Source: Halarcobacter sp. | Lineage (GTDB): Bacteria > Campylobacterota > Campylobacteria > Campylobacterales > Arcobacteraceae | Direction: 5' to 3' | NCBI GenBank assembly: GCA_048571215.1 | Contig: CP182352.1 | Span: 960,001-1,024,000 of the forward strand | DNA: 64,000 nt | Part shown: positions 1-14,152 of the stretch, piece by piece | Layout of the letters: each line of letters starts with the position of its first letter | How positions within the stretch are numbered: position 1 is the stretch's first letter | Translations under genes and position numbers: made by a program | Notes under the pieces: model-generated | What the model was told of the DNA's origin: nothing | Databases searched by the model: none | Seen by the model: the letters and a program-made list of their open reading frames with translations, nothing else

Positions 1-159
1 CATAAGCTAAATATAAAAACTAAAAAATCATTAATAACAGATGGTCAAGCTGCATTTCATCCAAAACTACTATTAAAAATATATATTTATGGATATTTAA
101 ATCTTGTAAAGCCAAGAGGTGCTTTAGCATCACTCTCTTTGAAAAAAAGTTATGTATAG
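1..159 (+). pseudogene. IS1182-family transposase N-terminal remnant (5' end outside window, truncated at 3' end)
   Basis: Frame 1 reads HKLNIKTKKSLITDGQAAFHPKLLLKIYIYGYLN, resembling the GRPAYHPxxLLKxxxYGY motif of IS1182/DUF772 transposases; similarity is then lost and the frame stops at TAG 157-159. Confidence 0.6.
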
Positions 160-298
160 CAATAAAAAACAAAGATTTAACTCAAATTACAAAAGATATA
201 GAGAAAAATATATCTTAGTGTTTGGACTTTATCTGGTTTATTATTTAGAATTTATTTTTTATTTTCAAATTTTTGTCAAAAAGTTAAGATATTTGGAA

Positions 299-370
299 AA
301 CTAATTGAGATTTTTACTGTAAATTTAGTTTATTTGGAACTAAATTCACAGTTTGACTGATTTGTTATCT
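299..370 (-). other. attC-like site closing the DUF2157/DUF4824 two-gene cassette
   Basis: Minus strand AGATAAC overlapping the stop codon, internal hairpin ACTGTGAATTTAGTT..AACTAAATTTACAGT, degenerate R' ATTAGTT; AGATAAC is complementary (apart from the G>A change) to the ATTATCT that opens this cassette at 2301-2307. Confidence 0.55.
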
Positions 371-1196
371 ATTTTTTTGTATTTAAATTCAATTCCTTAA
401 CGGCAGTTATATAAGGTTCAAATTTTGTTCCATATTTTAGTGTAACTATATATCTAGGTTTGATTACTTTTTTATTATTATAATTTCTTATTGGTCGTAA
501 TGACTTAAGAAAGTTACTATATTCAAGGGGAACATAAATCTCTTTTATACTTAAACCAGAAATATAACCATCAATTCCTTCGTCTGTATGTCTAACATTG
601 ATTAGTCCTTTTGCAATAATATATTTTGATTTATCTTGATATTTAGATCTTAATATTTTTGGATTAATATTTGCATCAATTGCAAAAAGTCTAGAACGGT
701 TAAATTGCTCATCTTTCAAGTCTTTTATTGCATGTTTTAACTTTTGTTTATCTTTTTTTTCTGTAGAGTTTAGTTCTTGTAATTCTTTGACCTTATTTTT
801 TGCTAATGCTAATGAATCTTGATATGACTTACCGTCATATTCTAGAACAATAAACACTTCTTTTTCAATACTTCTAAAAAAATTAAAACCATTATTTTTT
901 TTAAAGTTATTTTCAATATCAAAACCAAGACTTTTTAGTTTTTGCGTTGTAAGCCATAGTGTCTGGTTATTATAAGAAAAGTTATTTTGAATTCTCCAAT
1001 TAAGTTTTAATGAAATGGCATTATTTTCATTTCTATTTCGATATGGAAGTTTTAACTCTCGTTCCGTAAGAGATACTTCTGAACTAGGTAAGTCTGCTCT
1101 ATTAATAAAAACTCCATATAAAATTACAATATTTGAAATGATAATTAAAGCAAAAGCTAAAATAAATAACTTATTTGAATTAAAAAAATATTTCAT
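369..1196 (-). CDS. DUF4824-like protein (partner of DUF2157 membrane protein)
   Basis: N-terminal TM helix, LTERELxLP and SRLFAIDA motifs; coupled to the upstream membrane protein. Confidence 0.65.
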   Translation of the reverse strand: MKYFFNSNKLFILAFALIIISNIVILYGVFINRADLPSSEVSLTERELKLPYRNRNENNAISLKLNWRIQNNFSYNNQTLWLTTQKLKSLGFDIENNFKKNNGFNFFRSIEKEVFIVLEYDGKSYQDSLALAKNKVKELQELNSTEKKDKQKLKHAIKDLKDEQFNRSRLFAIDANINPKILRSKYQDKSKYIIAKGLINVRHTDEGIDGYISGLSIKEIYVPLEYSNFLKSLRPIRNYNNKKVIKPRYIVTLKYGTKFEPYITAVKELNLNTKK

Positions 1197-2269
1197 GAGA
1201 ATACCTTTTCATCATTTTCAATAACAGATAATCGTAATTTTTTAAATACAAATAATACAATTAGTGCCGATAAGCCTATTAAGAAAAAGAAAATGTATTT
1301 TGGCATCCAATCCCACCACCAATCAAAAAACTTTGTGTATAAAAATATAGTAAAAAATATATTCCCAGTATTTACTACATCTGATAAGTTCTTTTTTATT
1401 CCAAACCAAATCATCAAAGCACTCATACTAAAACCAATCATTTGATACATTGCTTCAATATAATCTATTTCAAAATTTAAATAACTTATCATTCCCCAAT
1501 TCGATAGAATCAATACAGGAAGAAAAAATATAATCATCCCAAAAACTCTATAAATAACATCAAAACCATCATAACGATGATGTTTAATAAATGAAATAAA
1601 AAACAATAAAATGGCAACAGGTAAAAAATGTTCAGGTCTTTCTCCAAACCCAATCCAGTACATACCACTCCATGTTCCAATTTTTGCCGATAGAAAAGCA
1701 GAAAAGCTTAAAATTGCAAATGCTAGCAGTAACCTCGCATTAATAGCGTACGCTAATAATAATGCAAATATTGACCATACCAACAAAGCATTTGCAGATG
1801 GAGTAATATTAAATATTTGTCCAAGCATGGAAATATTAAGTACAAAACAAACGAAACTTAGTAATCCAAATATTTTTGAAAAATAGCTTGTTTTCTCCTT
1901 TTTAGAAAGATACATAGCTACTATCAAAGTAATAATTGGTGTTATTACCAATATTATTACTTGAATTGTAGTAGATAATACACCCCAAAATTGATAAAAA
2001 AGAAAAAATACACTTGCAGATAACCCAAGAGCACCTAAGAACGATGCTATTTTCATCCCTAAACTTAATTGTTTTTTGTGATGATTTGAATCGATATCAA
2101 ATGTTGATATAAGCTTAGTAATAAGGCTTTTGTGATAATTCTGTATATTGGTATATTGTGTTTTTTCAAGAGTAACAATATTTTCTTTTTCAAGTATTTG
2201 TAGTTCTTTTTGAAATTGATTGATTTGATCAACTCTTTGTTGTGCTTCAATTTTAGATTTTATATTCAT
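1193..2269 (-). CDS. DUF2157-domain multi-pass membrane protein
   Basis: 358 aa, many TM segments, LGQIFNI and FFDWWWDW motifs. Confidence 0.7.
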   Translation of the reverse strand: MNIKSKIEAQQRVDQINQFQKELQILEKENIVTLEKTQYTNIQNYHKSLITKLISTFDIDSNHHKKQLSLGMKIASFLGALGLSASVFFLFYQFWGVLSTTIQVIILVITPIITLIVAMYLSKKEKTSYFSKIFGLLSFVCFVLNISMLGQIFNITPSANALLVWSIFALLLAYAINARLLLAFAILSFSAFLSAKIGTWSGMYWIGFGERPEHFLPVAILLFFISFIKHHRYDGFDVIYRVFGMIIFFLPVLILSNWGMISYLNFEIDYIEAMYQMIGFSMSALMIWFGIKKNLSDVVNTGNIFFTIFLYTKFFDWWWDWMPKYIFFFLIGLSALIVLFVFKKLRLSVIENDEKVFS

Positions 2270-2300
2270 TATTTATTGTAACTCCTGAGAATATTTATTT

Positions 2301-2372
2301 AGATAATGTTTGAAATGAGTAATCAAAAAGCCGCCCGCGGGTTTTTGATTGGTCTCCTCTGATTTATTATAA
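2301..2372 (-). other. attC-like site (both cores altered, AAT/ATT)
   Basis: Minus strand TTATAATAAATCAGAGGAGACCAATCAAAAACCCGCGGGCGGCTTTTTGATTACTCATTTCAAACATTATCT; same scaffold as the sites at 2667 and 5412. Confidence 0.7.
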
Positions 2373-2612
2373 GTCTGGTGTGTGTTGCAAGAAATTGATT
2401 TCATTTGCTTTCTCAATATCTCCAATTCTTAGGTAGTGAATCAGCTTTTTCAATTCATTGTCTTGGAATATTCTATAGTCAATGTCCTTTGCACGAATAT
2501 CTTCATCAGAAAAATAATGGGGGAGATATGCAAATACACCATCCAATGAGTTGTCATAAAGCTCTTCAACAGTACATTCAGTGTGTTTTACACTCTCTTG
2601 ATGGTTTAACAT
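2367..2612 (-). CDS. Hypothetical protein, gene-cassette ORF
   Basis: 81 aa ORF bracketed by attC-like sites. Confidence 0.55.
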   Translation of the reverse strand: MLNHQESVKHTECTVEELYDNSLDGVFAYLPHYFSDEDIRAKDIDYRIFQDNELKKLIHYLRIGDIEKANEINFLQHTPDL

Positions 2613-2666
2613 TCTTTCCAGTAAATCAGCTAGTTGAAGATATTGGATAGCGAACCCCTTTTTGAC

Positions 2667-2735
2667 TTATAACGTTTGAATTGAGGAATATTTGAGCCGC
2701 AGGGTCAAATATTCCTCTCCAATGATTTGTTAGCC
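2667..2735 (-). other. attC site (69 bp)
   Basis: Minus strand GGCTAAC-AAATCATTGGA-GAGGAATATTTGA-CCCTGCGGC-TCAAATATTCCTC-AATTCAAAC-GTTATAA: AAC/GTT cores around an imperfect palindrome. Confidence 0.85.
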
Positions 2736-3097
2736 ACACCAGTATATATTTCAGAGGGAGGGTAACCTTCTGACTCTGCATAAAACTTATTTCCATTCTT
2801 CTCAATCACCAAATAACCTCCTCCCCCATGAGCCATCATACTTTTTGAGGCTTGATCCCATGTCAGTTCTTCCATTCGACCTGTCAAATCGAAAAAAATA
2901 CAATCATCTTGATCCACAAAGCCGATTTTTTCATATGCAAACTGTTTGGGAAAAACATCTGAAATACTATGACAAATTTTTCTCATCAATTTTTCGGGCT
3001 TTTTTAACGCATCAACAACACATCGTGATTGGTAGTCTTTGAGGACAAAATTTGAAGCAAATCGTTCAATACTTTGTTGTGTAATCATATAATCCAC
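2705..3097 (-). CDS. Hypothetical protein, gene-cassette ORF
   Basis: 130 aa, RBS GAGG just inside the cassette start GTTAGCC; C-terminus NKSLERNI runs into the attC. Confidence 0.7.
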   Translation of the reverse strand: MDYMITQQSIERFASNFVLKDYQSRCVVDALKKPEKLMRKICHSISDVFPKQFAYEKIGFVDQDDCIFFDLTGRMEELTWDQASKSMMAHGGGGYLVIEKNGNKFYAESEGYPPSEIYTGVANKSLERNI

Positions 3098-3103
3098 CTC
3101 ATA

Positions 3104-3151
3104 GGCTAACTATTTATTGAATATACATTATATAAATAAAGTACTTAAATA
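3104..3151 (-). promoter_or_regulatory. attI-like site with TATAAT box, head of cassette array 2
   Basis: Minus strand ATATAATGTATATTCAATAAATA|GTTAGCC; 25/27 identical to 6919-6945; no hairpin partner, unlike an attC. Confidence 0.6.
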
Positions 3152-3390
3152 TGCTACTTTATTATATATTTATCAAGAAAACTTATTTTATGCATGTTTA
3201 TAGAAATAATATTATGTAATATAATATTTATTCTATATATCTTTATTATAAGTTATAATCTTTATGTATATTTTATGTCGATATTTAGAACTTTAATATA
3301 TATAATGTATGTTAAAAGTAAGAATTTAACTTTAAATAACATTTTGATTGTTTAACAAAATGATAAATATATTATGTGTATTTGGATAAT

Positions 3391-4002
3391 ACTATTATCA
3401 AAATATTTGAGTGTAAATAAACTTTTACTGTACCTCTTGGCTTTGTCGACTTTCTTTTGTGAAAAAGAAAGTAGCAAAGAAACCATCCCACAGGTTTCGA
3501 AGCCGAAGGTTCCCTCGCTTATTATTTCACTTTTCTATTTTTTAAAACTCGCTAAAACGTAAGTTAGTTACGTTTTTGACACTCAGACAGTTAAAAAACT
3601 TTTGCCTGCAAGCAGGATTACATCCGAAAAGCAAAATAAACACTCGGCTTCTCAAATGCGGGAAGGTGGGATAATGACCTTTTCATTTTTTGGTACCATT
3701 TTGTTTGGATTTGTGTAATACTCAAATAGTATGAGAAAGTTCAAGGCTAGGGTATTTTAGTCCAGACTTTGTTGAAGCTGGAAGTTTTTTAATTATTTTC
3801 GGAGAAGACCGAGGACCGTTCAACTGGATAAAAGGTACTGAATGTACCTTTTAGGAAGGCGTTCCGCAGGTCAGAAGATAATTATAAAACTGGAGGGAAC
3901 TTTAGCTTCAACAACCGTCTGGCTGCTTTTTGTCTTACTTTTTACAACTAAAAAGTGAGAAAGCGGAGAGCTTTGCTCTACAAGAGGGTGTATACAATTA
4001 AA
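3391..4002. repeat. ~612-bp structured non-coding repeat, copy 1 (complete: half A + spacer + inverted half B)
   Basis: Start ACTATTATCAAAATATTTGAG recurs at 4003 and 10963; nested hairpins. Confidence 0.9.
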
Positions 4003-4340
4003 ACTATTTTCAAAATATTTGAGTGTGAATAAACTTTTACTGTACGTCTTAACTTTACCGACTTTCTTTTGTGAAAAAGAAAGTAGCAAAGAAACCATCC
4101 CACAGGTTTCAAAGCCGAAGGTTCCCTCGCTTATTATTCATCCCTTTTGAGTGCCTAAAAACTTGCTAAAACGTGAGTTAGTCACGTTTTTTTACGCTTC
4201 AAACAGTTTATTCACTTGTTTTCAAAAGAGACAAATAAACACTCGGCTTCTCAAATGCGGAAAGGTAGGAAATTGACCTTTGCATTTTTTGATACCATTT
4301 TATTTGAATTGGTGTGATACTCAACAATTATTATAAAAGT
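4003..4340. repeat. Structured repeat copy 2 (tandem; half A + spacer only)
   Basis: Highly similar to 3391-3740, e.g. GACTTTCTTTTGTGAAAAAGAAAGTAGCAAAGAAACCATCCCACAGGTTTC. Confidence 0.9.
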
Positions 4341-4663
4341 GGAGATTCATTCTCTGGGGGGTGTCACCATTAAATTGCAATGGATATTTCTATATTTGAG
4401 CTATGCTTTTTGTGAGTTTTCAAATTGCTTTGCATCATCTATTGAACGCTTTGATATGTTTTATAAATAATTTTATATAGTCTATTCATCTCTTTTTTTG
4501 CAAATGTAGATGTATTTTCACTGCACATAGCAACAACCGTATTATTTATTTGACCTTCTTTATGAATACGATCATTGTAAATTTTCTCATATTTATTTTT
4601 TGTTTCAGTAAATAAAATAAAAGGCATTAATGCAATAAGTAATAGTAAATTTGTGACCTTCAT
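4341..4663 (-). pseudogene. LprI/DUF1311-like exported protein, decayed cassette gene
   Basis: Signal peptide, MCS..EMNRLYK, then after a frameshift DDAKQFENSQKA*LKYRNIHC (TAG where the family has W); truncated at the repeat. Confidence 0.6.
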
Positions 4664-4682
4664 AGATTACTCCTTTGTATCA

Positions 4683-4734
4683 ATATAACGCCTGCCTCAG
4701 CCGCTGAAGATCGGATTAGAGTCTCTTGTTAGCC
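4683..4734 (-). other. attC-like site (52 bp, GC-richer type)
   Basis: Minus strand GGCTAACAAGAGACTCTAATCCGATCTTCAGCGGCTGAGGCAGGCGTTATAT. Confidence 0.7.
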
Positions 4735-5107
4735 ATTTTCTAGTTATTATAGGCAACCATGTAGCCCCTATAGCACACAGCTGAAAATAGGTTAACCGGT
4801 ACGGGTGAGCCCAGCCACCCGAGTAGCCAACATCAAAAGCCAGCCACACAACAAATGTGGAACTTGAAGCCAAAGCCACAATCAGCACCCTTTCTGGAAA
4901 TCTCAGTACAGCAAAACCCTCTAATACCGCCAATACTCCGAACCACGCTGTAAAAAAGCCTAAGGTTAGCCCCCAGGAATACCCACCTCTGTATTCTCTA
5001 CCTATAGCTTCCGCCACGAAGTGGCCGACTCCATATATCGCGGTCAGAAGAAGCACCCTGATTATTGGCCGTAACAAAAGCAGATAAACTATGCGCTTTG
5101 TCATCAC
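4697..5107 (-). CDS. Small membrane protein, gene-cassette ORF
   Basis: 136 aa, ~4 TM segments, visibly higher GC than the host, ends inside an attC. Confidence 0.7.
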
Positions 5108-5143
5108 GATTAACCTTTGAAATAAGCCGATAAATTGTTATTC
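5108..5143 (-). other. Internally deleted attC-like site (36 bp)
   Basis: Minus strand GAATAAC-AATTTATCGGCTTATTTCAAAG-GTTAATC between two cassette ORFs. Confidence 0.45.
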
Positions 5144-5144
5144 A

Positions 5145-5387
5145 TTAGAAGTCAGAGAGTACAGAGATTATCACGTGTGGCTCAGAACTTTCAGATTTTC
5201 CAAATTTTAAGGAAGATTGACCATCTGATGTACGAACTTTTGTAGCCTCGGAAATACTTATATCATTAATTTCAAGAATACGAAACATATGTCCTTTAGC
5301 TTGGAAAATCTCATCTTCTGTATAGCAAAGTACATCAGAATTTGATGGTAAAGACTGAAGCTTAGTTAATAAATCGGAAACTTTCAT
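5145..5387 (-). CDS. Hypothetical protein, gene-cassette ORF
   Basis: 80 aa, RBS AAGGA, bracketed by attC-like sites. Confidence 0.65.
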   Translation of the reverse strand: MKVSDLLTKLQSLPSNSDVLCYTEDEIFQAKGHMFRILEINDISISEATKVRTSDGQSSLKFGKSESSEPHVIISVLSDF

Positions 5388-5411
5388 GTAAATCCTTCTT
5401 ATAATTTTAGT

Positions 5412-5480
5412 GTATAACGTCTAAGTTGAGAAATATTTGAGCCACAGAATCAAATATTTCTCCCCCATGATTTGTTATAT
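5412..5480 (-). other. attC site (69 bp)
   Basis: Minus strand ATATAAC-AAATCATGGGG-GAGAAATATTTGA-TTCTGTGGC-TCAAATATTTCTC-AACTTAGAC-GTTATAC; homologous to 2667-2735 with a compensatory G-C/A-T pair. Confidence 0.85.
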
Positions 5481-6892
5481 AGTTTAATCATTATGATACT
5501 TTTACCTATCAGTCCTAATAATGATATAACAATTGAACTTAGCATTAAATAGCCGATATCTGGTACAAACATTAAAAATCCGCTAAATGTTAAATTATAC
5601 AACTTGGGTATAATAAAAAATAGTGAGATGATAATTGAAATATCAAATATAAATGATACTATTGTTCTATACTTTTTGACATCTTTATGCTTTTGAATAA
5701 ACTGTTTCATTAAAAATAATTGAACTATTAATAAACTGATAAAAAATACATATGCAGATATAGAGATAATATCTATAGTGGTATCTTTTAGTTCTTTATT
5801 TCTAATTATATCAATAATACCACCTGCTAGAGTGTTTAACTCATTACTGCCTAATGTATATGAAGTAGCATTTGTAAGCATAATAAGACCTAGTTTTTCT
5901 TCTGGAAATATAATCATTGAAGCTGTATATCCAGGGGCTGTTCCTAAATGATTTAAATAAAGTTTTTCACTAGTATCCACAAACCATCCAAAGCCATAAT
6001 GGATTTTACCCTTGACTATCGTAGCACTTGGTGTTTGTATTTGTTTAATAATAGAAGATGAAAATATCTGTTCTTTCTTATATTTTCCTTTATTTAACTG
6101 TGCAATTAAATAGTTGCTCATATCTTCAACATTTGAAATAATATATCCAGCAGGAAGTAAAACTTTACTAAATGGAAAATCACTTTTTATAGCTTGACCA
6201 AACCAAAGTCTATGTCCTTGTGCTATATTTTTTTTGTCAATATTCTCTAAAGAGGCATAACTATTTTTCATATCAAGTTTATTAAATATATTTTCTTTTA
6301 TATATTGATTATAAGAAAGCCCAGTTACTTTTTCTATAACTAAACCTAAAATTTGATAATTTATATTTGAATAATAAAAAGTGGTTGATGGCTTTGAAAT
6401 AAGTGAGACATCTTTTAACGCCCGAATAGTTTTTTCTAAAGCAAAATTACTACTATCCCAATCATCAAAATTTTTCAATCCATCATAAGTAGAAAATCCG
6501 CTGGTTTGGTTTAACAGTGTTCTAATAGTTATATTGTTGACATCTTTTTCATCTTTTATTTTAAACCAAGAAAGATACTTATTTATTGAATCATCCAAAT
6601 TAATTTTCCCATCTTCCACTAATTGCATAATTGCTAAGGCTATAAATGACTTGGTTAATGAGCCGATATAAAATAAAGATTTTGTATTTATATCTTTATC
6701 TTTAGAATAACTATTTTTATAAATTAAACTATTATCCTTTATAACCCCTATTGATATAGTAGGAATATCTGCTTGATTTTGCATTTTTTTAACATAGTTA
6801 TCAATTTTATTAAAAGTTTGAGTATCTATATTTTTAGCATTTAATTCAAAACAAAGAAATATAATAAAAATTAGTATAAATTTTATTTGCAC
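5450..6892 (-). CDS. Serine hydrolase, beta-lactamase class C/AmpH-like, with C-terminal TM helices (cassette)
   Basis: SLTK (SxxK), YSN, HLG motifs; signal peptide; ends NKSWGRNI inside the attC. Confidence 0.85.
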   Translation of the reverse strand: MQIKFILIFIIFLCFELNAKNIDTQTFNKIDNYVKKMQNQADIPTISIGVIKDNSLIYKNSYSKDKDINTKSLFYIGSLTKSFIALAIMQLVEDGKINLDDSINKYLSWFKIKDEKDVNNITIRTLLNQTSGFSTYDGLKNFDDWDSSNFALEKTIRALKDVSLISKPSTTFYYSNINYQILGLVIEKVTGLSYNQYIKENIFNKLDMKNSYASLENIDKKNIAQGHRLWFGQAIKSDFPFSKVLLPAGYIISNVEDMSNYLIAQLNKGKYKKEQIFSSSIIKQIQTPSATIVKGKIHYGFGWFVDTSEKLYLNHLGTAPGYTASMIIFPEEKLGLIMLTNATSYTLGSNELNTLAGGIIDIIRNKELKDTTIDIISISAYVFFISLLIVQLFLMKQFIQKHKDVKKYRTIVSFIFDISIIISLFFIIPKLYNLTFSGFLMFVPDIGYLMLSSIVISLLGLIGKSIIMIKLYNKSWGRNI

Positions 6893-6915
6893 TTATTGCA
6901 CCTCATATATTTTAT

Positions 6916-6963
6916 ATATAACTATTAATTAAATATACATTATATTAATTTATTACTTAAATA
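6916..6963 (-). promoter_or_regulatory. attI-like site with TATAAT box, head of cassette array 1
   Basis: Minus strand ATATAATGTATATTTAATTAATA|GTTATAT; GTTATAT is complementary to the ATATAAC that closes this cassette. Confidence 0.6.
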
Positions 6964-7217
6964 GCCTGATAACATAACATAATTAAACTAAGCCTTCAAA
7001 TAGGCTATTTGTATAAAAAAATATTCTAAAATGATATATCTTTTAAGTAAATTATAATGTTATATTATCATCTATATGTATAGTTTTTATCTAAATAACA
7101 GTAATAAACATGCAATTTGCATGTTATTTGGAATAAATCGTGATAATACTACATTTTAAGAAAATATAAAATGAGTGAAAAATTATTTGATATAATGAGA
7201 GATAAATTCTAAATATT

Positions 7218-7675
7218 CACTTTTTTGCCTGCAAGCAGGATTACATATTGAAAAAAGTAAAACAAAAAGCAACCCGCAGGTTTCGAAGATGAAACTAGCC
7301 TCACTTATTATTTATTGCTTCTCAAATGCGGGAAGGTAGTATAAAGACCTTTGCATTTTTTGGTACCATTTTATTTAAGTTGGTGTTATGTTAAATTTAC
7401 ATCAGGAAGTTTGTGGCTAGTGTATTTTAGTCCAGACTTTGTTGAAGCCGAGTGCTTTGCTTTTTAAAGCGGAAAAAGCCGAAACTGTTTGAAGAAAGAA
7501 AAGTGACTAACTCACTTTTTCGAGGAGTTTTGCAGGCTAGCTTTAAAAAGTGAAGTGGGAGGGAACTTTAGCTTTAACAACGCGTCTGGTTGCTTTTTGT
7601 CTTACTTTTTACAACTAAAAAGTGAGAAAGCGGAGAACTTTGTTCTACAAGAGAGTGCATACAATTAAAACTATC
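7218..7675. repeat. Structured repeat copy 3 (eroded half A, intact half B)
   Basis: GCTTCTCAAATGCGGGAAGGT, TAGTCCAGACTTTGTTGAAGC and TTGTCTTACTTTTTACAACTAAAAAGTGAGAAAGCGGAGA shared with copy 1. Confidence 0.9.
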
Positions 7676-7717
7676 TATAAATCTATTTAACTATTTACTT
7701 AAATCATATTTTTCATA

Positions 7718-8161
7718 TCAATCAATCTCCAAAAAGTTTTCTTTTACTCTTTCTAATAGTTTACATAAAAGTTCTTTTTCCTCTTGAGTAAAATTTTTAT
7801 ATGTAATATCTAAAAGTTTTGGTGAGATAATATCCATAACTATAGGTTTTGTGCCAAGTCCTTTTTGTGTTAGTTTTACCATTGTACTTCTACTATCTTT
7901 TTCATTTTTAAATTTTATTAAAAGTTCCATTTTTTCAAGCTTGTTTACCAAAGCTGTTACTGTTGATTTATCTTTATTTATTGATTGGGTTATTTGACTC
8001 ATGGGAACACCATCTTTATTTTTATAAAGTAGATTTAAAATATTTCCATGGGAAGGGGCAAGTCCTATTAGGTCGTGTTTTTTTAATTCATCCATGATTA
8101 GTTTATTTGTACTATTGTGAATATGTCCTATAGTTGAGATTATTTCATTTGTATTTTTCAT
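7718..8161 (-). CDS. MarR-family transcriptional regulator
   Basis: wHTH KSTVTALVNKLEK and DSRS..VKLT..G motifs. Confidence 0.9.
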   Translation of the reverse strand: MKNTNEIISTIGHIHNSTNKLIMDELKKHDLIGLAPSHGNILNLLYKNKDGVPMSQITQSINKDKSTVTALVNKLEKMELLIKFKNEKDSRSTMVKLTQKGLGTKPIVMDIISPKLLDITYKNFTQEEKELLCKLLERVKENFLEID

Positions 8162-8227
8162 TAGTTTTATATCCTACTATTTTCTATTGAAAGGATAACT
8201 ATATTTTGTTTAAAGTAATGAAAAGTA

Positions 8228-9088
8228 TTAAAACTTTCCATTACTATTTGCCCATTTATCTTTGGTAGGAATCTCTTGAATAGTATCCCAATGCTCTACA
8301 ATTTTGTCATTTTCAATTCTAAACAAATCGTAAAATGAATAAGGTTTTCCATGCCATGAACCTTCACTAATGGTTAGTACAAAATTACCTTCACCTAATA
8401 CTTTATGAAGTTTTTTATAAGTAAACATATCGTTTTTAGAGATTAGATAAGTGATTGCCTCATTTAAACCTGCCAAACCATCTTTTATATAAGGGTTATG
8501 TTGATCATATTTTTCAGTTGAGATATAATCTGTAATTTTATTTGGATTTTTACCAAAGAATATATCTTCAAAAAGCTTTTTAACTAAAGTTTTATTTTCA
8601 TCAGTTTTATCTAAATCTGTAATCTTAGTTTCCCCATCGATTTGAGTTCTTCCACTTGCTGTATTTTTAACTATATCTTGTAGATTATCCCAATGTTCTA
8701 CTATTTTCCCATCTTCAAATCTAAAGATATCAAACCCAACTTTTGCCCCAAAGAAGTTATACTTTGTATGGGTAAAAACATAATTTTCATCCTCAAAAGC
8801 TCTAACTACTTTTACACTTGAACTTCCTTTTGGCAACATTGCAACAACTTCACCAAAACCTTTCAAACCATCTTTTATTGATAAGTTATGTTGTATATAT
8901 TTATCTGGATTAATATAATTTATAGGCTCAGTTGCTCCTGTTTCTATTGAATTTAGTAGTTCAATCACTTTTTGTTTGTTTGTAAGCATTTTTGGCTCCT
9001 TTTTTTGTTCTGCTGTATATGCACATCCTGAAAAAATTGAAGCAGTTATAACTCCTGCTAGTAGCTTTTTTATATCGATTGTTTTCAT
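8228..9088 (-). CDS. SnoaL/NTF2-like double-domain lipoprotein
   Basis: Lipobox FSGC; two repeats of Y.QHN..IKDG and DxFRxExxKIVEHWD. Confidence 0.85.
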   Translation of the reverse strand: MKTIDIKKLLAGVITASIFSGCAYTAEQKKEPKMLTNKQKVIELLNSIETGATEPINYINPDKYIQHNLSIKDGLKGFGEVVAMLPKGSSSVKVVRAFEDENYVFTHTKYNFFGAKVGFDIFRFEDGKIVEHWDNLQDIVKNTASGRTQIDGETKITDLDKTDENKTLVKKLFEDIFFGKNPNKITDYISTEKYDQHNPYIKDGLAGLNEAITYLISKNDMFTYKKLHKVLGEGNFVLTISEGSWHGKPYSFYDLFRIENDKIVEHWDTIQEIPTKDKWANSNGKF

Positions 9089-9103
9089 TTTTGATCCTTT
9101 AAA

Positions 9104-9161
9104 AGTTTGATATCAAACTAAATATTAAAGGAATTATAGTTTGATATCAAACTAAAGTCAA
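9104..9161 (-). promoter_or_regulatory. Sigma70 promoter overlapped by two palindromic operators (probably MarR)
   Basis: -35 TTGACT (9161-9156), 17 bp spacer, -10 TATAAT (9138-9133); perfect palindrome AGTTTGATATCAAACT at 9104-9119 and 9138-9153. Confidence 0.8.
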
Positions 9162-9257
9162 GAGTTTTTGAAAAGAATTGTGAAATTTTTAATATTATTG
9201 ATTTTTATTTTTGTATGAATTGATTGTTGTGCTAGATTCTATTTGTTGTTATGTCAT

Positions 9258-9353
9258 TTATTTTTTCTCAAACGCAAGCTTTATCCCTAAACAAATCAAA
9301 ACTGTACCACTTGTACGATTGATTCATTTTAGTACAGATTCATTATTCAGGAC
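9258..9353 (-). pseudogene. C-terminal remnant of a LysE/RhtB-family translocator
   Basis: VLNNESVLK*INRTSGTVLICLGIKLAFEKK*, resembling the WxNRxxGxxLIxxGxKL end of LysE proteins; 5' part replaced by the repeat. Confidence 0.55.
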
Positions 9354-9583
9354 CTTTGGATTTTTTATACCATTTTATTCGAATTGGTGTAATACTTAAA
9401 AAGCATTCTAAAAGTTTGAGGCTAGGGTATTTAGTCCAGACTTTGTTGAAGCTGGAACTTTTTCTTTTTTTATGGTGAAAAGTGAGGACGTGTTTGAGCG
9501 TAAAAAAGAGTGACTAACTCACTCTTTTAGCGAGTTGCCACCTTAAAAGAATATAAAAATTCCATATAAAATTTATAATAAAA

Positions 9584-10555
9584 TTAAATTTTTTCTGAAT
9601 CATATGGTACATTATTTTTATATACGGCATGAGCAATAACTAATAGTTTTCTCATAATTGCTACTTGTATAACTGTAGTATGTTTTCCATTTTCTTTTAG
9701 TCTATCATAAAACTTTCTTAATCTTTCGTTATTTCTTATTGATGTCATTGCTGGCATAAACAAAGTACCTCTACATATTTTTGAACCTGCTTTTGATATT
9801 TTTGTTTTTCCATTAACTGATATACCTGAACTTTTTTCTATTGGATCTAATCCTGCTAAAGATACTATCTGTTTTTGATTAGCATTTTTATATTGAATAA
9901 AATGTATAAGTAATACAATTGAAGATATTTCTCCTATACCATCAATTGTTTGCAAATTATTAAATGATTGTTGAAGTTTCTCATCTTTTTTTATGATTGA
10001 TTTTATTTTTTTGATAATTTTTTGTTCTTGTTTTTTTAAAAATTGATTTTGTAATTCAAACTCTTTTATCAAATAGCTTTTATCTTTTTTTGCTTTTAAA
10101 GCAGCTATATGGTTTTTAGTTATAACTTGTTGTTTAATAATTAATTTATATCCAGAAATAAGCTCTTTTAATTCTTCTTCTATGGTATCTACAATAGGTA
10201 TTTTAATATCTTTATCTTTAGCTGTAACAATCATTTTAGATAAAAGCTGTGCATCTTTTATATCATTTTTATTTCTATATCCCATTACTTTTGCAAAGCT
10301 AGCACTTTTTTTAGGATTTACTATAAAGCTTTTTATATTTTTGTTTGCACAAAACTGTTTTAAAAGAAATGAATAATTAGCTGTTGGTTCATAAACAAAT
10401 ACTAATTTATCTATCTCTTTTTTATAAAGCTTTTTTAGTTTAGAGTACAAACTTTTTATTCCATTTAAACTATTATCAATAATTAAATCTAAATCATTTA
10501 TTGGAATATAAACATTAATTGTTGACTTACTTACATCTAATCCGATAGAATACAT
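9584..10555 (-). CDS. IS110-family DEDD recombinase/transposase
   Basis: GLDVSK, YEPT, KNDIKDA (DEDD), SSG catalytic serine, ISKAG, VAIMRKL. Confidence 0.95.
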   Translation of the reverse strand: MYSIGLDVSKSTINVYIPINDLDLIIDNSLNGIKSLYSKLKKLYKKEIDKLVFVYEPTANYSFLLKQFCANKNIKSFIVNPKKSASFAKVMGYRNKNDIKDAQLLSKMIVTAKDKDIKIPIVDTIEEELKELISGYKLIIKQQVITKNHIAALKAKKDKSYLIKEFELQNQFLKKQEQKIIKKIKSIIKKDEKLQQSFNNLQTIDGIGEISSIVLLIHFIQYKNANQKQIVSLAGLDPIEKSSGISVNGKTKISKAGSKICRGTLFMPAMTSIRNNERLRKFYDRLKENGKHTTVIQVAIMRKLLVIAHAVYKNNVPYDSEKI

Positions 10556-10599
10556 TTCTAGAACCTTTATTTTAGGATAAAGAGTTCGTTAGGGTAGGA

Positions 10600-10805
10600 T
10601 TTCTCCTACCTGATAATTGTTATACAAACTTTAGACTTATAAAATACGAACTAGTTATAAAACTGTTCTTGTTGCCACTCAAATTTAAAGTATAACTATC
10701 AAACTCGCCATCAAGCTAATTATAAATTATTTTTTATAATTGCTTTAGTTCCGCAACGATATATTATCTTTCAAACTCTTTGGAAATATATTAACTATAT
10801 TCCCT
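10600..10805 (-). ncRNA. Predicted IS110 bridge RNA (ends approximate)
   Basis: Guide matches in canonical 5'-3' order: LTG 10758-10747, RTG 10708-10703, LDG 10678-10671, RDG 10641-10635; TATAAT just inside the element end. Confidence 0.8.
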
Positions 10806-10962
10806 TAAATGTATTATATAAGTCCCGCAACGCAATAAAAAAATAGAAAGTGGAAGGTAGCTTTGCCTTCAACAACGCGTCTGGTGGCTTTTGTTTTACT
10901 TTTACCACTAAAAGTAAAGAAAGCGAAGAACTTGTTCTTCAAGACAACTGCATACAATAAAA

Positions 10963-11579
10963 ACTATTTTCAAAGTATTTGAATGTAGTTAAACTTTAAC
11001 TGTACCTCTTGGTTTTTTCGACTTTTTTTATGAAAAAAAAGTAGCAAAAAATCACCCGCGGGGTTTCGAAGGCGGAAGCTCCCCTCGCTTATTATTTATT
11101 ATTTCTGTTTTGTCTTGTGCTTGCACTCTCTTTGAGAAAACTCACATAAAAATATGCTCCCAGCATATTTGTTCTGTTCAAACAGTTACAAAACTTCTCC
11201 GAAACAATAAATAAACACTCGGCTTCTCAAATGCGGGAAGGTGGGATAATGATCTTTGCATTTTTTGATACCATTACATTCAAAATTACTGTGATACTCA
11301 ATATCTATTTTAAAAGTTTGTGGCTAGTGTATTTAGTCCAGACTTTGTTGAAGCCGGAAGGTTTTTAATTATTTTCGGAAAAGCCTGAGAATGTTTGAGG
11401 AGAGAAAAGTGACTAGATGTCACTTTTTCGACGAGTTTCGCAAGGCAGAAAATAATTAAGAACCTGTAGGGGACTTTAGCTTTAACAACCGTCTGGTGGC
11501 TTTTCTCAAAGAGAGTGTAAACACAGGTTTTACTTTTACCACTAAAAGTAAAGGAAGCGAAGAACTTTGTTCTTCAAGA
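10963..11579. repeat. Structured repeat copy 5 (complete, tandem to copy 4)
   Basis: Collinear with 3391-4002 throughout. Confidence 0.9.
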
Positions 11580-11587
11580 TAAAAAAC

Positions 11588-12775
11588 CTACTTGTTTTTC
11601 ACTTCCACCCCATTATATCCCAACACCTTTTGCACATATCTTTTATCTCTCATACCAACTAAGATTCTAGTTATATATTCTTGTTCTTCTAAGAATTTAA
11701 GTGCAGCAAAGTCTATTGGTTCTTTTATCCCTAGTTTTTCTGATACTTTTTTTGAAATTCTATGTTTTACATTGTTTTTATAACAATTTAAAAAGCTGTC
11801 AAAAAGTTGGAAATATATGGGGTCTAGTTTTATTTGTTGTACTGCATATGGTATAACTTGATATTCTATTAAGTCATCCACATCTCCAGCCCATTTATAT
11901 TCACTTTCAAGGGAAAGAAGTTGAGTTATTAATTCTTGAAAATTATCATTTGGTATCTCTTTAACTTGTTCTAAAAGTTGCTCAAAATTGATACACTCAC
12001 TATAACTTGCAAGTCTTATCATCTCATCATCTTTTATGGCATTTAAAGGTCTATTAACATGAACCTCTAAGCCATTTTCATGTGCCCATTTTGCAGCTGG
12101 TATTCCATTTAGCTCAAACATATTCATAGGCAGTTGTATAACCTTAAAGTGATGGTTTTCCCCTGCAATTTCTTTTGCATAAGAGATTAGATGTTTATAT
12201 TCTAAAAAGTGTAAATCACTTCTTTTTTTAGCAAAGGAGTTTGAACTAATCCCATAAGCTTTTATTTTTCCCTCTTTTACTCTTTCTTCTAAAAGTGCAA
12301 AGGCATTTTTGATTCTTAGTTGCATTGTTTTGTGATGGTGTAGTACTTGTTCTTCACTCATCCCAGCTTTTACCTCTTTCATTAAGTAATACTCTGGATT
12401 ATGAAGTAGATATACATCAATATAATCTGTGTTTAATCTTTTTAAACTCTTGTGTATCTCTTCATCAATAAATGATTGTGATATTGAGTGGTAGCAGTTT
12501 TCATCATATTTTACTAATTCATCTACTTCATAGCCATTTTGAACTTTTTTTAGAAGCTCACCTTGAATATAACCACCTTTGGTGATAATAGTATAATCTT
12601 CTCTTTTTTTATTCTCTAATACTTGTCCTATCATTAGCTCAGCTTCACCGTGCATATAGTTTGAGGAAGTATCAATATGAGTAATACCATTTTCAAGTGC
12701 AAAGTTTAAAGCATCTTTATGAATAGGATTTTGATAAGTTGTTCTGTAAGTTCCGAATGAATATTTTGATAGCAT
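11588..12775 (-). CDS. Aldo/keto reductase
   Basis: FGTYR, IDTSSNY, TKGG, SLKRLNTDYIDVYLLHNPE. Confidence 0.9.
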   Translation of the reverse strand: MLSKYSFGTYRTTYQNPIHKDALNFALENGITHIDTSSNYMHGEAELMIGQVLENKKREDYTIITKGGYIQGELLKKVQNGYEVDELVKYDENCYHSISQSFIDEEIHKSLKRLNTDYIDVYLLHNPEYYLMKEVKAGMSEEQVLHHHKTMQLRIKNAFALLEERVKEGKIKAYGISSNSFAKKRSDLHFLEYKHLISYAKEIAGENHHFKVIQLPMNMFELNGIPAAKWAHENGLEVHVNRPLNAIKDDEMIRLASYSECINFEQLLEQVKEIPNDNFQELITQLLSLESEYKWAGDVDDLIEYQVIPYAVQQIKLDPIYFQLFDSFLNCYKNNVKHRISKKVSEKLGIKEPIDFAALKFLEEQEYITRILVGMRDKRYVQKVLGYNGVEVKNK

Positions 12776-12865
12776 ATATAACCTTGAAAAAAATTTTAGA
12801 AATAATTATATACAAAAAGCATACCTTTGGCAATAAAAGGTATAAAAATTGCATATATTTTATTT

Positions 12866-13429
12866 ATGGAAAAAAAATACGATTTAGAAACATATGATAG
12901 ATTTTTGGGTGACTTTAAAAGTGATGGTGGTCACTGGGAAAAGATAGAAAAAAGAACAGCTACTTTATTTCAAGTTTTAATAGATGGGGACTTAAAAGAG
13001 CTTGTTTTTGTATTAAAACATTATCCTAAGTATGTTGAGATAGTTTGTGACCATTTTAGATATCTATATAATTATTCAGGGGAAGAGGCTGATATATATG
13101 CAGCTTCAAAGCTTTTAGATATGAGTGAAGGGTACCATCAAAAACAATTTGTTCGAAATCTTGTTAGAAAATTAGAAAAGGTTGATGAGTTTGATATATC
13201 AAGCTTAAAAAACTTTTTAGATAATCTAATAAATAATCAAACAAAAATACACCCTATAATATTAGCTTATTACAAAAGTGAAATACAAAACAATATTGAA
13301 AGTAACAATTACCATAAACTTCAAATAAAGGTTTTAGAAAAAAATCTTTCTAAATTGATAGTTGATAATAGTTTTGATTTTAGTGCAAAAGATAGGGATG
13401 CAAATTTAGATATTCCATATATGGATTAA
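12866..13429 (+). CDS. Hypothetical protein
   Basis: ORF with host-like composition; ATG at 12866 preferred. Confidence 0.7.
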   Translation: MEKKYDLETYDRFLGDFKSDGGHWEKIEKRTATLFQVLIDGDLKELVFVLKHYPKYVEIVCDHFRYLYNYSGEEADIYAASKLLDMSEGYHQKQFVRNLVRKLEKVDEFDISSLKNFLDNLINNQTKIHPIILAYYKSEIQNNIESNNYHKLQIKVLEKNLSKLIVDNSFDFSAKDRDANLDIPYMD

Positions 13430-13442
13430 GAGGAGTAGTTAT

Positions 13443-13868
13443 ATGAAGTTTTTTACAAAAAAAGAGGTTGTTTTTTATGAAAAACCTGGATGTGCAGGAA
13501 ACAAAAAACAAAAAGAGCTTTTAACAAGTAATGGGGTAGAGTTTGAAGTAAAATCTATGCTTGATACTAAATGGAGTGTTGAGAGTTTGAATAGTTTTTT
13601 TAAAGATTTAGATAAAGAAAAAATAGTAAATCAGTTTGCACCGCAAGTAAAAAGTGGTGAGATAGATATATCAAAACTTTCAAAAGATGAATTAGTAAAC
13701 CTGATGATAAAAGAACCAATTCTAATAAAAAGACCACTTATTCAAGTAGATGATGAAAAAATTTGTGGCTTTGATATCCCAAAACTAAACAGTGCATTAA
13801 GTTTAGACCTTGATTCAAAAAAAGAGATTGGCACTTGCCAAAGTAGTGATTCATGCAAAACTGTTTAG
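13443..13868 (+). CDS. ArsC/Spx-family protein
   Basis: YEKPGCAGN, P.LIKRP, CGFD. Confidence 0.85.
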   Translation: MKFFTKKEVVFYEKPGCAGNKKQKELLTSNGVEFEVKSMLDTKWSVESLNSFFKDLDKEKIVNQFAPQVKSGEIDISKLSKDELVNLMIKEPILIKRPLIQVDDEKICGFDIPKLNSALSLDLDSKKEIGTCQSSDSCKTV

Positions 13869-14152
13869 TAGAAATATGTAAAGAGTTTGAAACCTTAAAA
13901 GGTTTTTTAAAAACTCCAACAAAAGAGCAAGAAGAGACTGTAAATAGACTTTTTTATAAATTCATGGAGTGTTTTCCTACAATAAAAGAGGAGAAACTTG
14001 AATACCCTCGTGAGTTCATTGATGATGTAAGATTATATAATGAAGGTTTAGAGATAGTTCATAAAAAATTTGAGGATACTCAAATTAGATATCTAATGCT
14101 TAGCGATTTTTATGATTTTGCAAGAGTAACAAAAAAATACAAGAAAATATAG
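13853..14152 (+). CDS. Hypothetical protein
   Basis: 99 aa ORF overlapping the upstream gene. Confidence 0.65.
   Translation: MQNCLVEICKEFETLKGFLKTPTKEQEETVNRLFYKFMECFPTIKEEKLEYPREFIDDVRLYNEGLEIVHKKFEDTQIRYLMLSDFYDFARVTKKYKKI

Follow-up and report, generated by a model that had tools for sequence, protein, structure and literature searches.

Cassette arrays without an adjacent integrase gene in a Halarcobacter genome are headed by stand-alone attI-like sites that may be served in trans

Two modules of like build lie on the minus strand at the left end of a 64,000-nucleotide stretch of DNA from Halarcobacter sp. (the window; assembly GCA_048571215.1, contig CP182352.1, positions 960,001 to 1,024,000). 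In each, a hairpin repeat is followed by an AT-rich head that ends in an attI-like recombination site, and then by a short array of gene cassettes, with no intact integron integrase gene (intI) alongside. The source genome, labelled G000, is one contig of 3.61 Mb with 28.5% GC, so that the window is G000:960001-1024000; relatives, sampled as one genome per species, carry G numbers and excerpted loci L numbers. An earlier note on this DNA had proposed a distributed integron-like system in which attI/promoter platforms, associated with the repeat, capture cassettes using an integrase from elsewhere. Our analysis supports the core of that proposal at the level of sequence, namely stand-alone attI/promoter platforms, one integrase elsewhere and cassettes joined exactly at GTT, and we consider it likely that these form a distributed integron whose orphan attI heads remain substrates of IntI acting in trans.

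The modules are listed in Table 1. Their 27-nucleotide attI-like cores differ at two positions, so the identity of 25/27 and the shared TATAAT given in the earlier note stand; its two crossovers, placed at 6916 and 3104, move to a G at 6922 and at 3110. The repeat ends 290 bp upstream of the first crossover and 253 bp upstream of the second. Neither module is a complete integron. The statement that no intI lies next to either head holds for an intact gene, the only one, at G000:895245-896189, being 68 kb away, and fails for head 6922, beside which a 13-codon stub of an intI start aligns (score 43, shuffle maximum 38). Four units do follow this head; the first has the sole well-formed attC (5480-5418), the second and third attC seem shortened, the third folding at −1.6 kcal/mol, and the fourth unit has none. 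Likewise three cassettes follow head 3110, the second with ATT in place of GTT in its attC and the third with an attC split by an insertion sequence (IS) remnant. By definition the window arrays would be CALIN-like (clusters of attC lacking a nearby integrase): the 3110 array has the at least two attC required (2735, 2372 and more to the left of the window) and no intI nearby, and in the 6922 array a single attC is well formed. A third module of like build stands directly left of the window at G000:957002. Contigs of sequencing run X5 cover both flanks at ∼105x and leave 4400-7200 uncovered; no bridging contig was seen, and the gap is no evidence. We also observed in head A a palindrome (window 7107-7125) with a counterpart in the intI-linked head, a possible regulator site.

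Table 1. Features of the two modules and their surroundings, in window coordinates (aa, amino acids; ORF, open reading frame).
Feature	Position	Strand	Comparison or remark
Hairpin repeat copy 3, partial unit with internal deletion, joined to intI stub	7212..7684	-	
13-codon intI-start stub, then stop at repeat junction	7171..7212	+	aligned with intI starts of relatives
Head A, region between intI and attI of a G048-like integron type	6922..7170	-	85% over 287 nt to L034
TATAAT-containing attI core A, crossover at G 6922	6919..6945	-	
Cassette 1, serine hydrolase of beta-lactamase fold, 480 aa, attC 5480-5418	5418..6921	-	below NCBIfam beta-lactamase cut-offs among the matches listed
Cassette 2, 80-aa ORF, shortened attC-like remnant (by eye)	5115..5417	-	
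Cassette 3, 136-aa ORF, 48% GC, shortened attC 4733-4690	4690..5114	-	
Unit 4, 74-aa ORF behind a GTT, without attC, continues into repeat	4368..4689	-	
Head-to-tail hairpin repeat copies 2 (half unit) and 1 (complete 600-bp unit)	3363..4367	-	
Head B, region between intI and attI, truncated immediately ahead of intI start codon	3110..3362	-	88% over 247 nt to L052/L054
TATAAT-containing attI core B, crossover at G 3110	3107..3133	-	
Cassette 5, 130-aa ORF, intact attC 2735-2673	2673..3109	-	
Cassette 6, 81-aa ORF, attC 2372-2307, ATT replacing GTT	2307..2672	-	
Cassette 7, two genes (DUF2157 and DUF4824), left attC part 372-358	358..2306	-	
IS1182-like remnant within cassette 7 attC	1..357		right attC part at G000:959839-959782; family call made on the L011 copy, a fragment below cut-off
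Genes for SnoaL-like and MarR proteins, flanked by repeat clusters	7718..9088	-	move with the block in G128
More repeat copies, interrupted by IS110 transposase (9584-10555), no attI behind	9349..11581	-	

The 27-mer had no match in 100 shuffled sequences. A matrix built from 15 seed sites, picked as GTT-bearing and scoring 25.8-39.6 when left out one at a time, found 22 sites above 20 bits in G000 and none above 18 bits in the reversed genome; with one weak and two gapped sites (by eye) these make up a working list of 25 attI-like sites. The crossover triplet of the 22 matrix sites is GTT in 19, ATT in two and CTT in one, TATAAT is kept 17-22 nt ahead of GTT, and most cores retain both elements. 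One copy, at G000:896493, stands 292 bp upstream of the G000 intI and divergent from it, with a cassette array ahead. The same arrangement recurs in relatives: in 22 of the 24 usable intI loci (29 in all, five being left out as too close to a contig edge) the motif lies on the strand opposite to intI, 245-305 bp upstream of the gene. The motif class thus lies directly upstream of and divergent from intI, a position that neither window copy occupies, and cassettes join it at G|TT, where conservation stops. Judged by its position beside intI, the 27-mer is the predicted attI of this lineage. Sites outnumber integrases. The motif is present in 65 of 121 family genomes (control matches, 0) and in 21 of the 25 genomes of the genus, and an intI match in 45 of the 121; G128 carries 15 copies alongside a single intI, and the single-contig genomes G056 and G115 have four copies each and no intI match. 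It also occurs in other families of the order (10/23 and 14/23 genomes in two of them), where G292 has seven copies with one intI and G229 four with no intI match; several families gave no motif match.

A single match in G000 exceeds the integron-integrase cut-off, at G000:895239-896201 next to guaA (398.5 bits to TIGR02249, cut-off 265). It matches IntI4 (PDB 2a3v) over its full length and is by these comparisons a predicted member of the integron integrase family, with the additional domain and the catalytic residues. Together with its divergent attI and attC cassettes, one of them duplicated, it forms a sedentary chromosomal integron at G000:895-899 kb. In excerpt L009, which holds this IntI at 5239-6201, an ORF-less cassette stands first and fourth in the intI-linked array (6493-6674 and 8384-8565), with a TIR-domain cassette after the first copy. 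In 27 of 29 relatives the DNA beyond intI maps to ∼19 places in G000, some through short matches, and four of these places are less than 10 kb from orphan attI sites; the variety of places argues that integrons of this lineage land at many positions and shed intI. As separate observations, the position of intI varies across the family (L029-L057), unlike the fixed site of typical sedentary integrons, and the guaA locus of G083 (L150) consists of repeat, intI stub and attI, the intact G083 intI being elsewhere.

Every head is homologous to the entire intI-attI interval of some relative's integron (head 1717232, for instance, is 87% identical to L043). Five G000 heads retain the 13-codon intI start and stop at one identical junction with the repeat, which is found at seven places in G000 and also in G020, G056 and G083; the remaining heads are cut at, or just ahead of, the intI start codon. 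By alignment, then, the heads are evidently truncated copies of genuine intI-attI promoter regions from several integron lineages. A generic promoter scan was uninformative, at chance level (28 against 26.9). We infer promoter activity of the heads, as we do catalysis in trans.

Cassettes follow these sites closely. We used profile models for attC, generic heuristics being too noisy at 28.5% GC. An earlier model placed 35 of 38 attC within 6 kb behind sites, a circular figure because that model had been seeded behind those sites. An independent model, built only from the first cassettes of 22 relatives' intI-linked arrays, found 29 attC in G000, of which 27 follow a same-strand attI-like site at no more than 6 kb (∼2% expected) and the other two at 7.3 and 9.3 kb, which answers in the affirmative the question, raised in the earlier note, of whether the 27-mer heads other cassette runs. 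A cassette integrated as a circle carries, directly after GTT, four bases complementary to those ahead of the AAC of its own attC. Such a footprint was found at both window sites, and in 17 of 19 first cassettes all four variable bases agree with R'' of the cassette's own attC (20,000 permutations gave a mean of 2.4 and a maximum of 9), R' of that attC agreeing in 0/19. A model-free version of the test gave 11 of 23 G000 orphans (permutation mean 1.4), 26 of 73 relatives' orphans (mean 1.9) and 7 of 10 intI-linked sites. These results bear on the idea that the motif is merely a strong promoter, behind which cassettes landed at secondary sites of the attG type. The motif does contain TATAAT, and attG, in the account given in 10.1101/2022.09.11.507474, requires only GWT. 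However, the position beside intI is fixed in nearly all usable loci, homology to intI-attI regions extends over 250 nt and nearly all attC are tied to the motif, whereas attG insertions are scattered and their cut is central. We regard this explanation as highly improbable. Close to the same subject, an IS1182-like element or remnant sits inside attC in several arrays, each time at roughly one and the same point just after R'' (window 1-372; G000 ∼631400, ∼900520, ∼1471450, ∼1937050 and ∼2825900), possibly an IS that targets attC.

When were the cassettes acquired? Thirteen repeat-fused heads without intI, from four species (G000, G128, G124 and G056), are 89-98% alike among themselves and 68-72% identical to the best of 31 intI-linked heads. 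The first 500 bases downstream of these 13 heads show no mutual similarity and the first genes are all unrelated, which argues for capture after intI loss. Two G000 heads with a shared stub show 97.8% identity across 420 nt, then diverge from GTT onward. Comparison of cassette content in relatives, as the earlier note had advised, points the same way: at G000:2745607 flank and head are kept across four species and the first gene differs, and 634884 and 1940122 keep their heads and differ in first gene from their G128 orthologues. At the ATT site 904735 the first gene is unchanged in G128, and at the orthologous loci 1465089, 1807051 and 1720192 the head type itself differs. One cassette stands first behind orphan 1472890 in G000 and internally in another array of G128, bounded by GTT in both. 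Capture after intI loss appears to be the simplest reading of these alignments. They leave as quite improbable the classical CALIN route, in which each module would be what is left, frozen and now decaying, of a complete integron whose intI was lost independently. That route would accommodate the intI stubs, the ancestry of heads from several integron types, the mapping of relatives' intI flanks near orphans, the broken attC, the IS insertions and the altered IntI; it is opposed by the unrelated first genes borne by heads with one derived repeat junction, the 97.8% pair included, and by the retention of GTT and TATAAT in most cores.

Several observations weigh against capture at orphan sites by IntI in trans. 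GTT is missing at 4 of the 25 sites, and one of these, the ATT site 634884, is, unlike 904735, among those whose first gene differs from that of the G128 orthologue. No attC was detected at 6 of the 25. Many attC in G000 are broken. At five alignment columns that otherwise do not vary among 14 sequences, the G000 IntI has private substitutions, one of them near the catalytic Tyr; it may therefore be weak now and possibly decaying. The model-free footprint in other families (3/16) is inside the permutation range, and a footprint by itself gives no date of integration relative to intI loss. Moreover, heads are 96-98% alike between species against 82-87% for their flanks, and G128 carries the 3110 array with the same cassettes at 97.9%, which together argue that blocks move between genomes; some heads also have intI-linked look-alikes at 88-94%. 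These last points are what would be expected if loading took place only at donors' intI-linked attI and finished arrays reached the orphans by homologous recombination through head or repeat, the orphans themselves never recombining. G128 lacks the 6922 module, at a place between two repeat copies, consistent with whole-module gain or loss. Yet the 13-member clade is too distant from any sampled intI-linked head for easy recombination, and its 13 different arrays would require 13 swaps, the donor sample being one genome per species. We think block transfer unlikely as the sole source of the arrays.

The repeat is a mosaic, head-to-tail unit of ∼600 bp that folds well below shuffled sequences (z −11.3); two-sided change affects 34 of 136 predicted pairs, a figure without shuffle control, RNA folding prefers neither strand clearly, and Rfam gave no match at E up to 1 for window 1-14000. 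It ends at most 450 bp upstream of 17 of the 25 G000 sites (random positions, 0.3%), and 17 of 34 G000 repeat clusters have an attI-like site next. Elsewhere it accompanies 18 of 66 relatives' orphan sites, all within the genus, in a non-random set of loci of which two had been chosen for having both; an attI site follows 2 of 19 repeat loci in relatives, and no copy of the repeat was detected at 20 loci belonging to other families. The association claimed in the earlier note holds at most G000 sites and at a minority of relatives' orphans. As a required part of the platform the repeat was rejected, because 8 of 25 G000 sites and 48 of 66 relatives' orphans lack it. Missing at many sites and seen only within the genus, it is, on its distribution, a genus-level companion and no defining element, probably serving as a handle for recombination; the repeat-plus-head units most likely spread by homologous recombination between repeat copies. 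The possibility that repeat and head were inserted as a cassette at an attC GTT found no support, since repeat starts are not placed after intact attC. G000 has a RAYT-like gene (REP-associated tyrosine transposase, REP denoting repetitive extragenic palindromes; 78.2 bits, cut-off 80), and a border motif of the repeat is common to RAYT-associated DNA and remnants. Neither the repeat body nor a full copy lies beside the RAYT gene, and the link is a lead only. Two further observations concern the repeat and such genes. IS110-type elements split the repeat at two recurring positions (window 9584-10555; G000 ∼1467.5k, ∼1705k, ∼2826k and ∼2521k). Runs of C-terminal fragments, which by resemblance may be polymorphic-toxin-like, occur with small partner genes and short REP-like motifs between them at L109:1900-8900 and L111:1500-6000, one run ending at the RAYT-like gene.

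We propose that integrons of this lineage insert at numerous chromosomal positions and subsequently shed intI, so that a promoter/attI head of 250-300 bp is left; within the genus, many heads are fused to the 600-bp repeat where intI begins or slightly inside it, and the repeat-plus-head units would then have multiplied. IntI from the single intact gene, or from a passing integron, would insert cassette circles at the GTTs of the heads, so that many short arrays would each place a captured gene directly behind a promoter. This suggests that 'enzyme-less' cassette arrays can be working capture sites and not relics. A bolder version, for which we see somewhat less than even chances, would be a genome-wide integron of free-living Campylobacterales, with self-propagating, selected, intI-less platforms on a structured 600-bp element that takes the place of intI from its start codon region; a single mobile intI would serve them in trans, and ∼20 captured genes could occupy the strongly expressed first position simultaneously. 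Whether CALINs are relics or live could previously not be asked, attI being unknown for most lineages in the account of PMC4889954; in the present case attI can be defined and sought across an order, and nearly all arrays lacking an integrase possess one. Should the sites work in trans, the picture of one intI and one attI undercounts gene capture, a passing integrase can reactivate genomes without intI, and many cassettes avoid being silent, as they are far down a long array.

Our literature search, mostly outside subscription journals and supplements, found no account of many attI per intI or of the integrons or attI of this family; IntegronFinder tables in supplements may list these arrays as CALINs. 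Among known systems, the sedentary chromosomal integron is represented by the G000:895-899 kb locus itself, but elsewhere in this genome ∼25 heads of 1-5 units replace one long array, and the position of intI is unfixed across the family. With attG sites, as presented in 10.1101/2022.09.11.507474, our sites share the insertion of cassettes by IntI away from its own gene; the attG consensus is three bases, whereas here full attI copies with their upstream region are present. The repeat resembles the REP, BIME (bacterial interspersed mosaic element) and REPIN families outlined in PMC8266576 in being a multi-copy, mosaic, tandem, intergenic hairpin in a genome with a RAYT-like gene, and differs in its 600-bp unit, against 20-50 nt, and in having no full copy by that gene. 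According to the portions of Cury et al. (2016, PMC4889954) considered here, CALINs outnumber complete integrons, half are in replicons encoding IntI, and intI loss is one proposed origin; they are defined by attC alone and discussed as cassette donors, attI being something that 'cannot be searched for' in most integrons. Loss of intI with mobilization in trans has already been proposed for them (PMC4889954, PMC8618304, 10.1101/2025.06.18.660453; see also 10.1101/2022.02.06.479319 and PMC2426708). The CALINs of Xanthomonas, in the description of 10.1101/2025.06.18.660453, likewise lie at several conserved loci away from an often truncated intI, with mobilization in trans mentioned, but that description reports no attI at them and intI is at one locus. 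Our arrays share with CALINs at large the clustering of attC without nearby intI; unlike those characterized in PMC4889954, nearly every cluster here comes with an attI head of its own and seems to act as a recipient.

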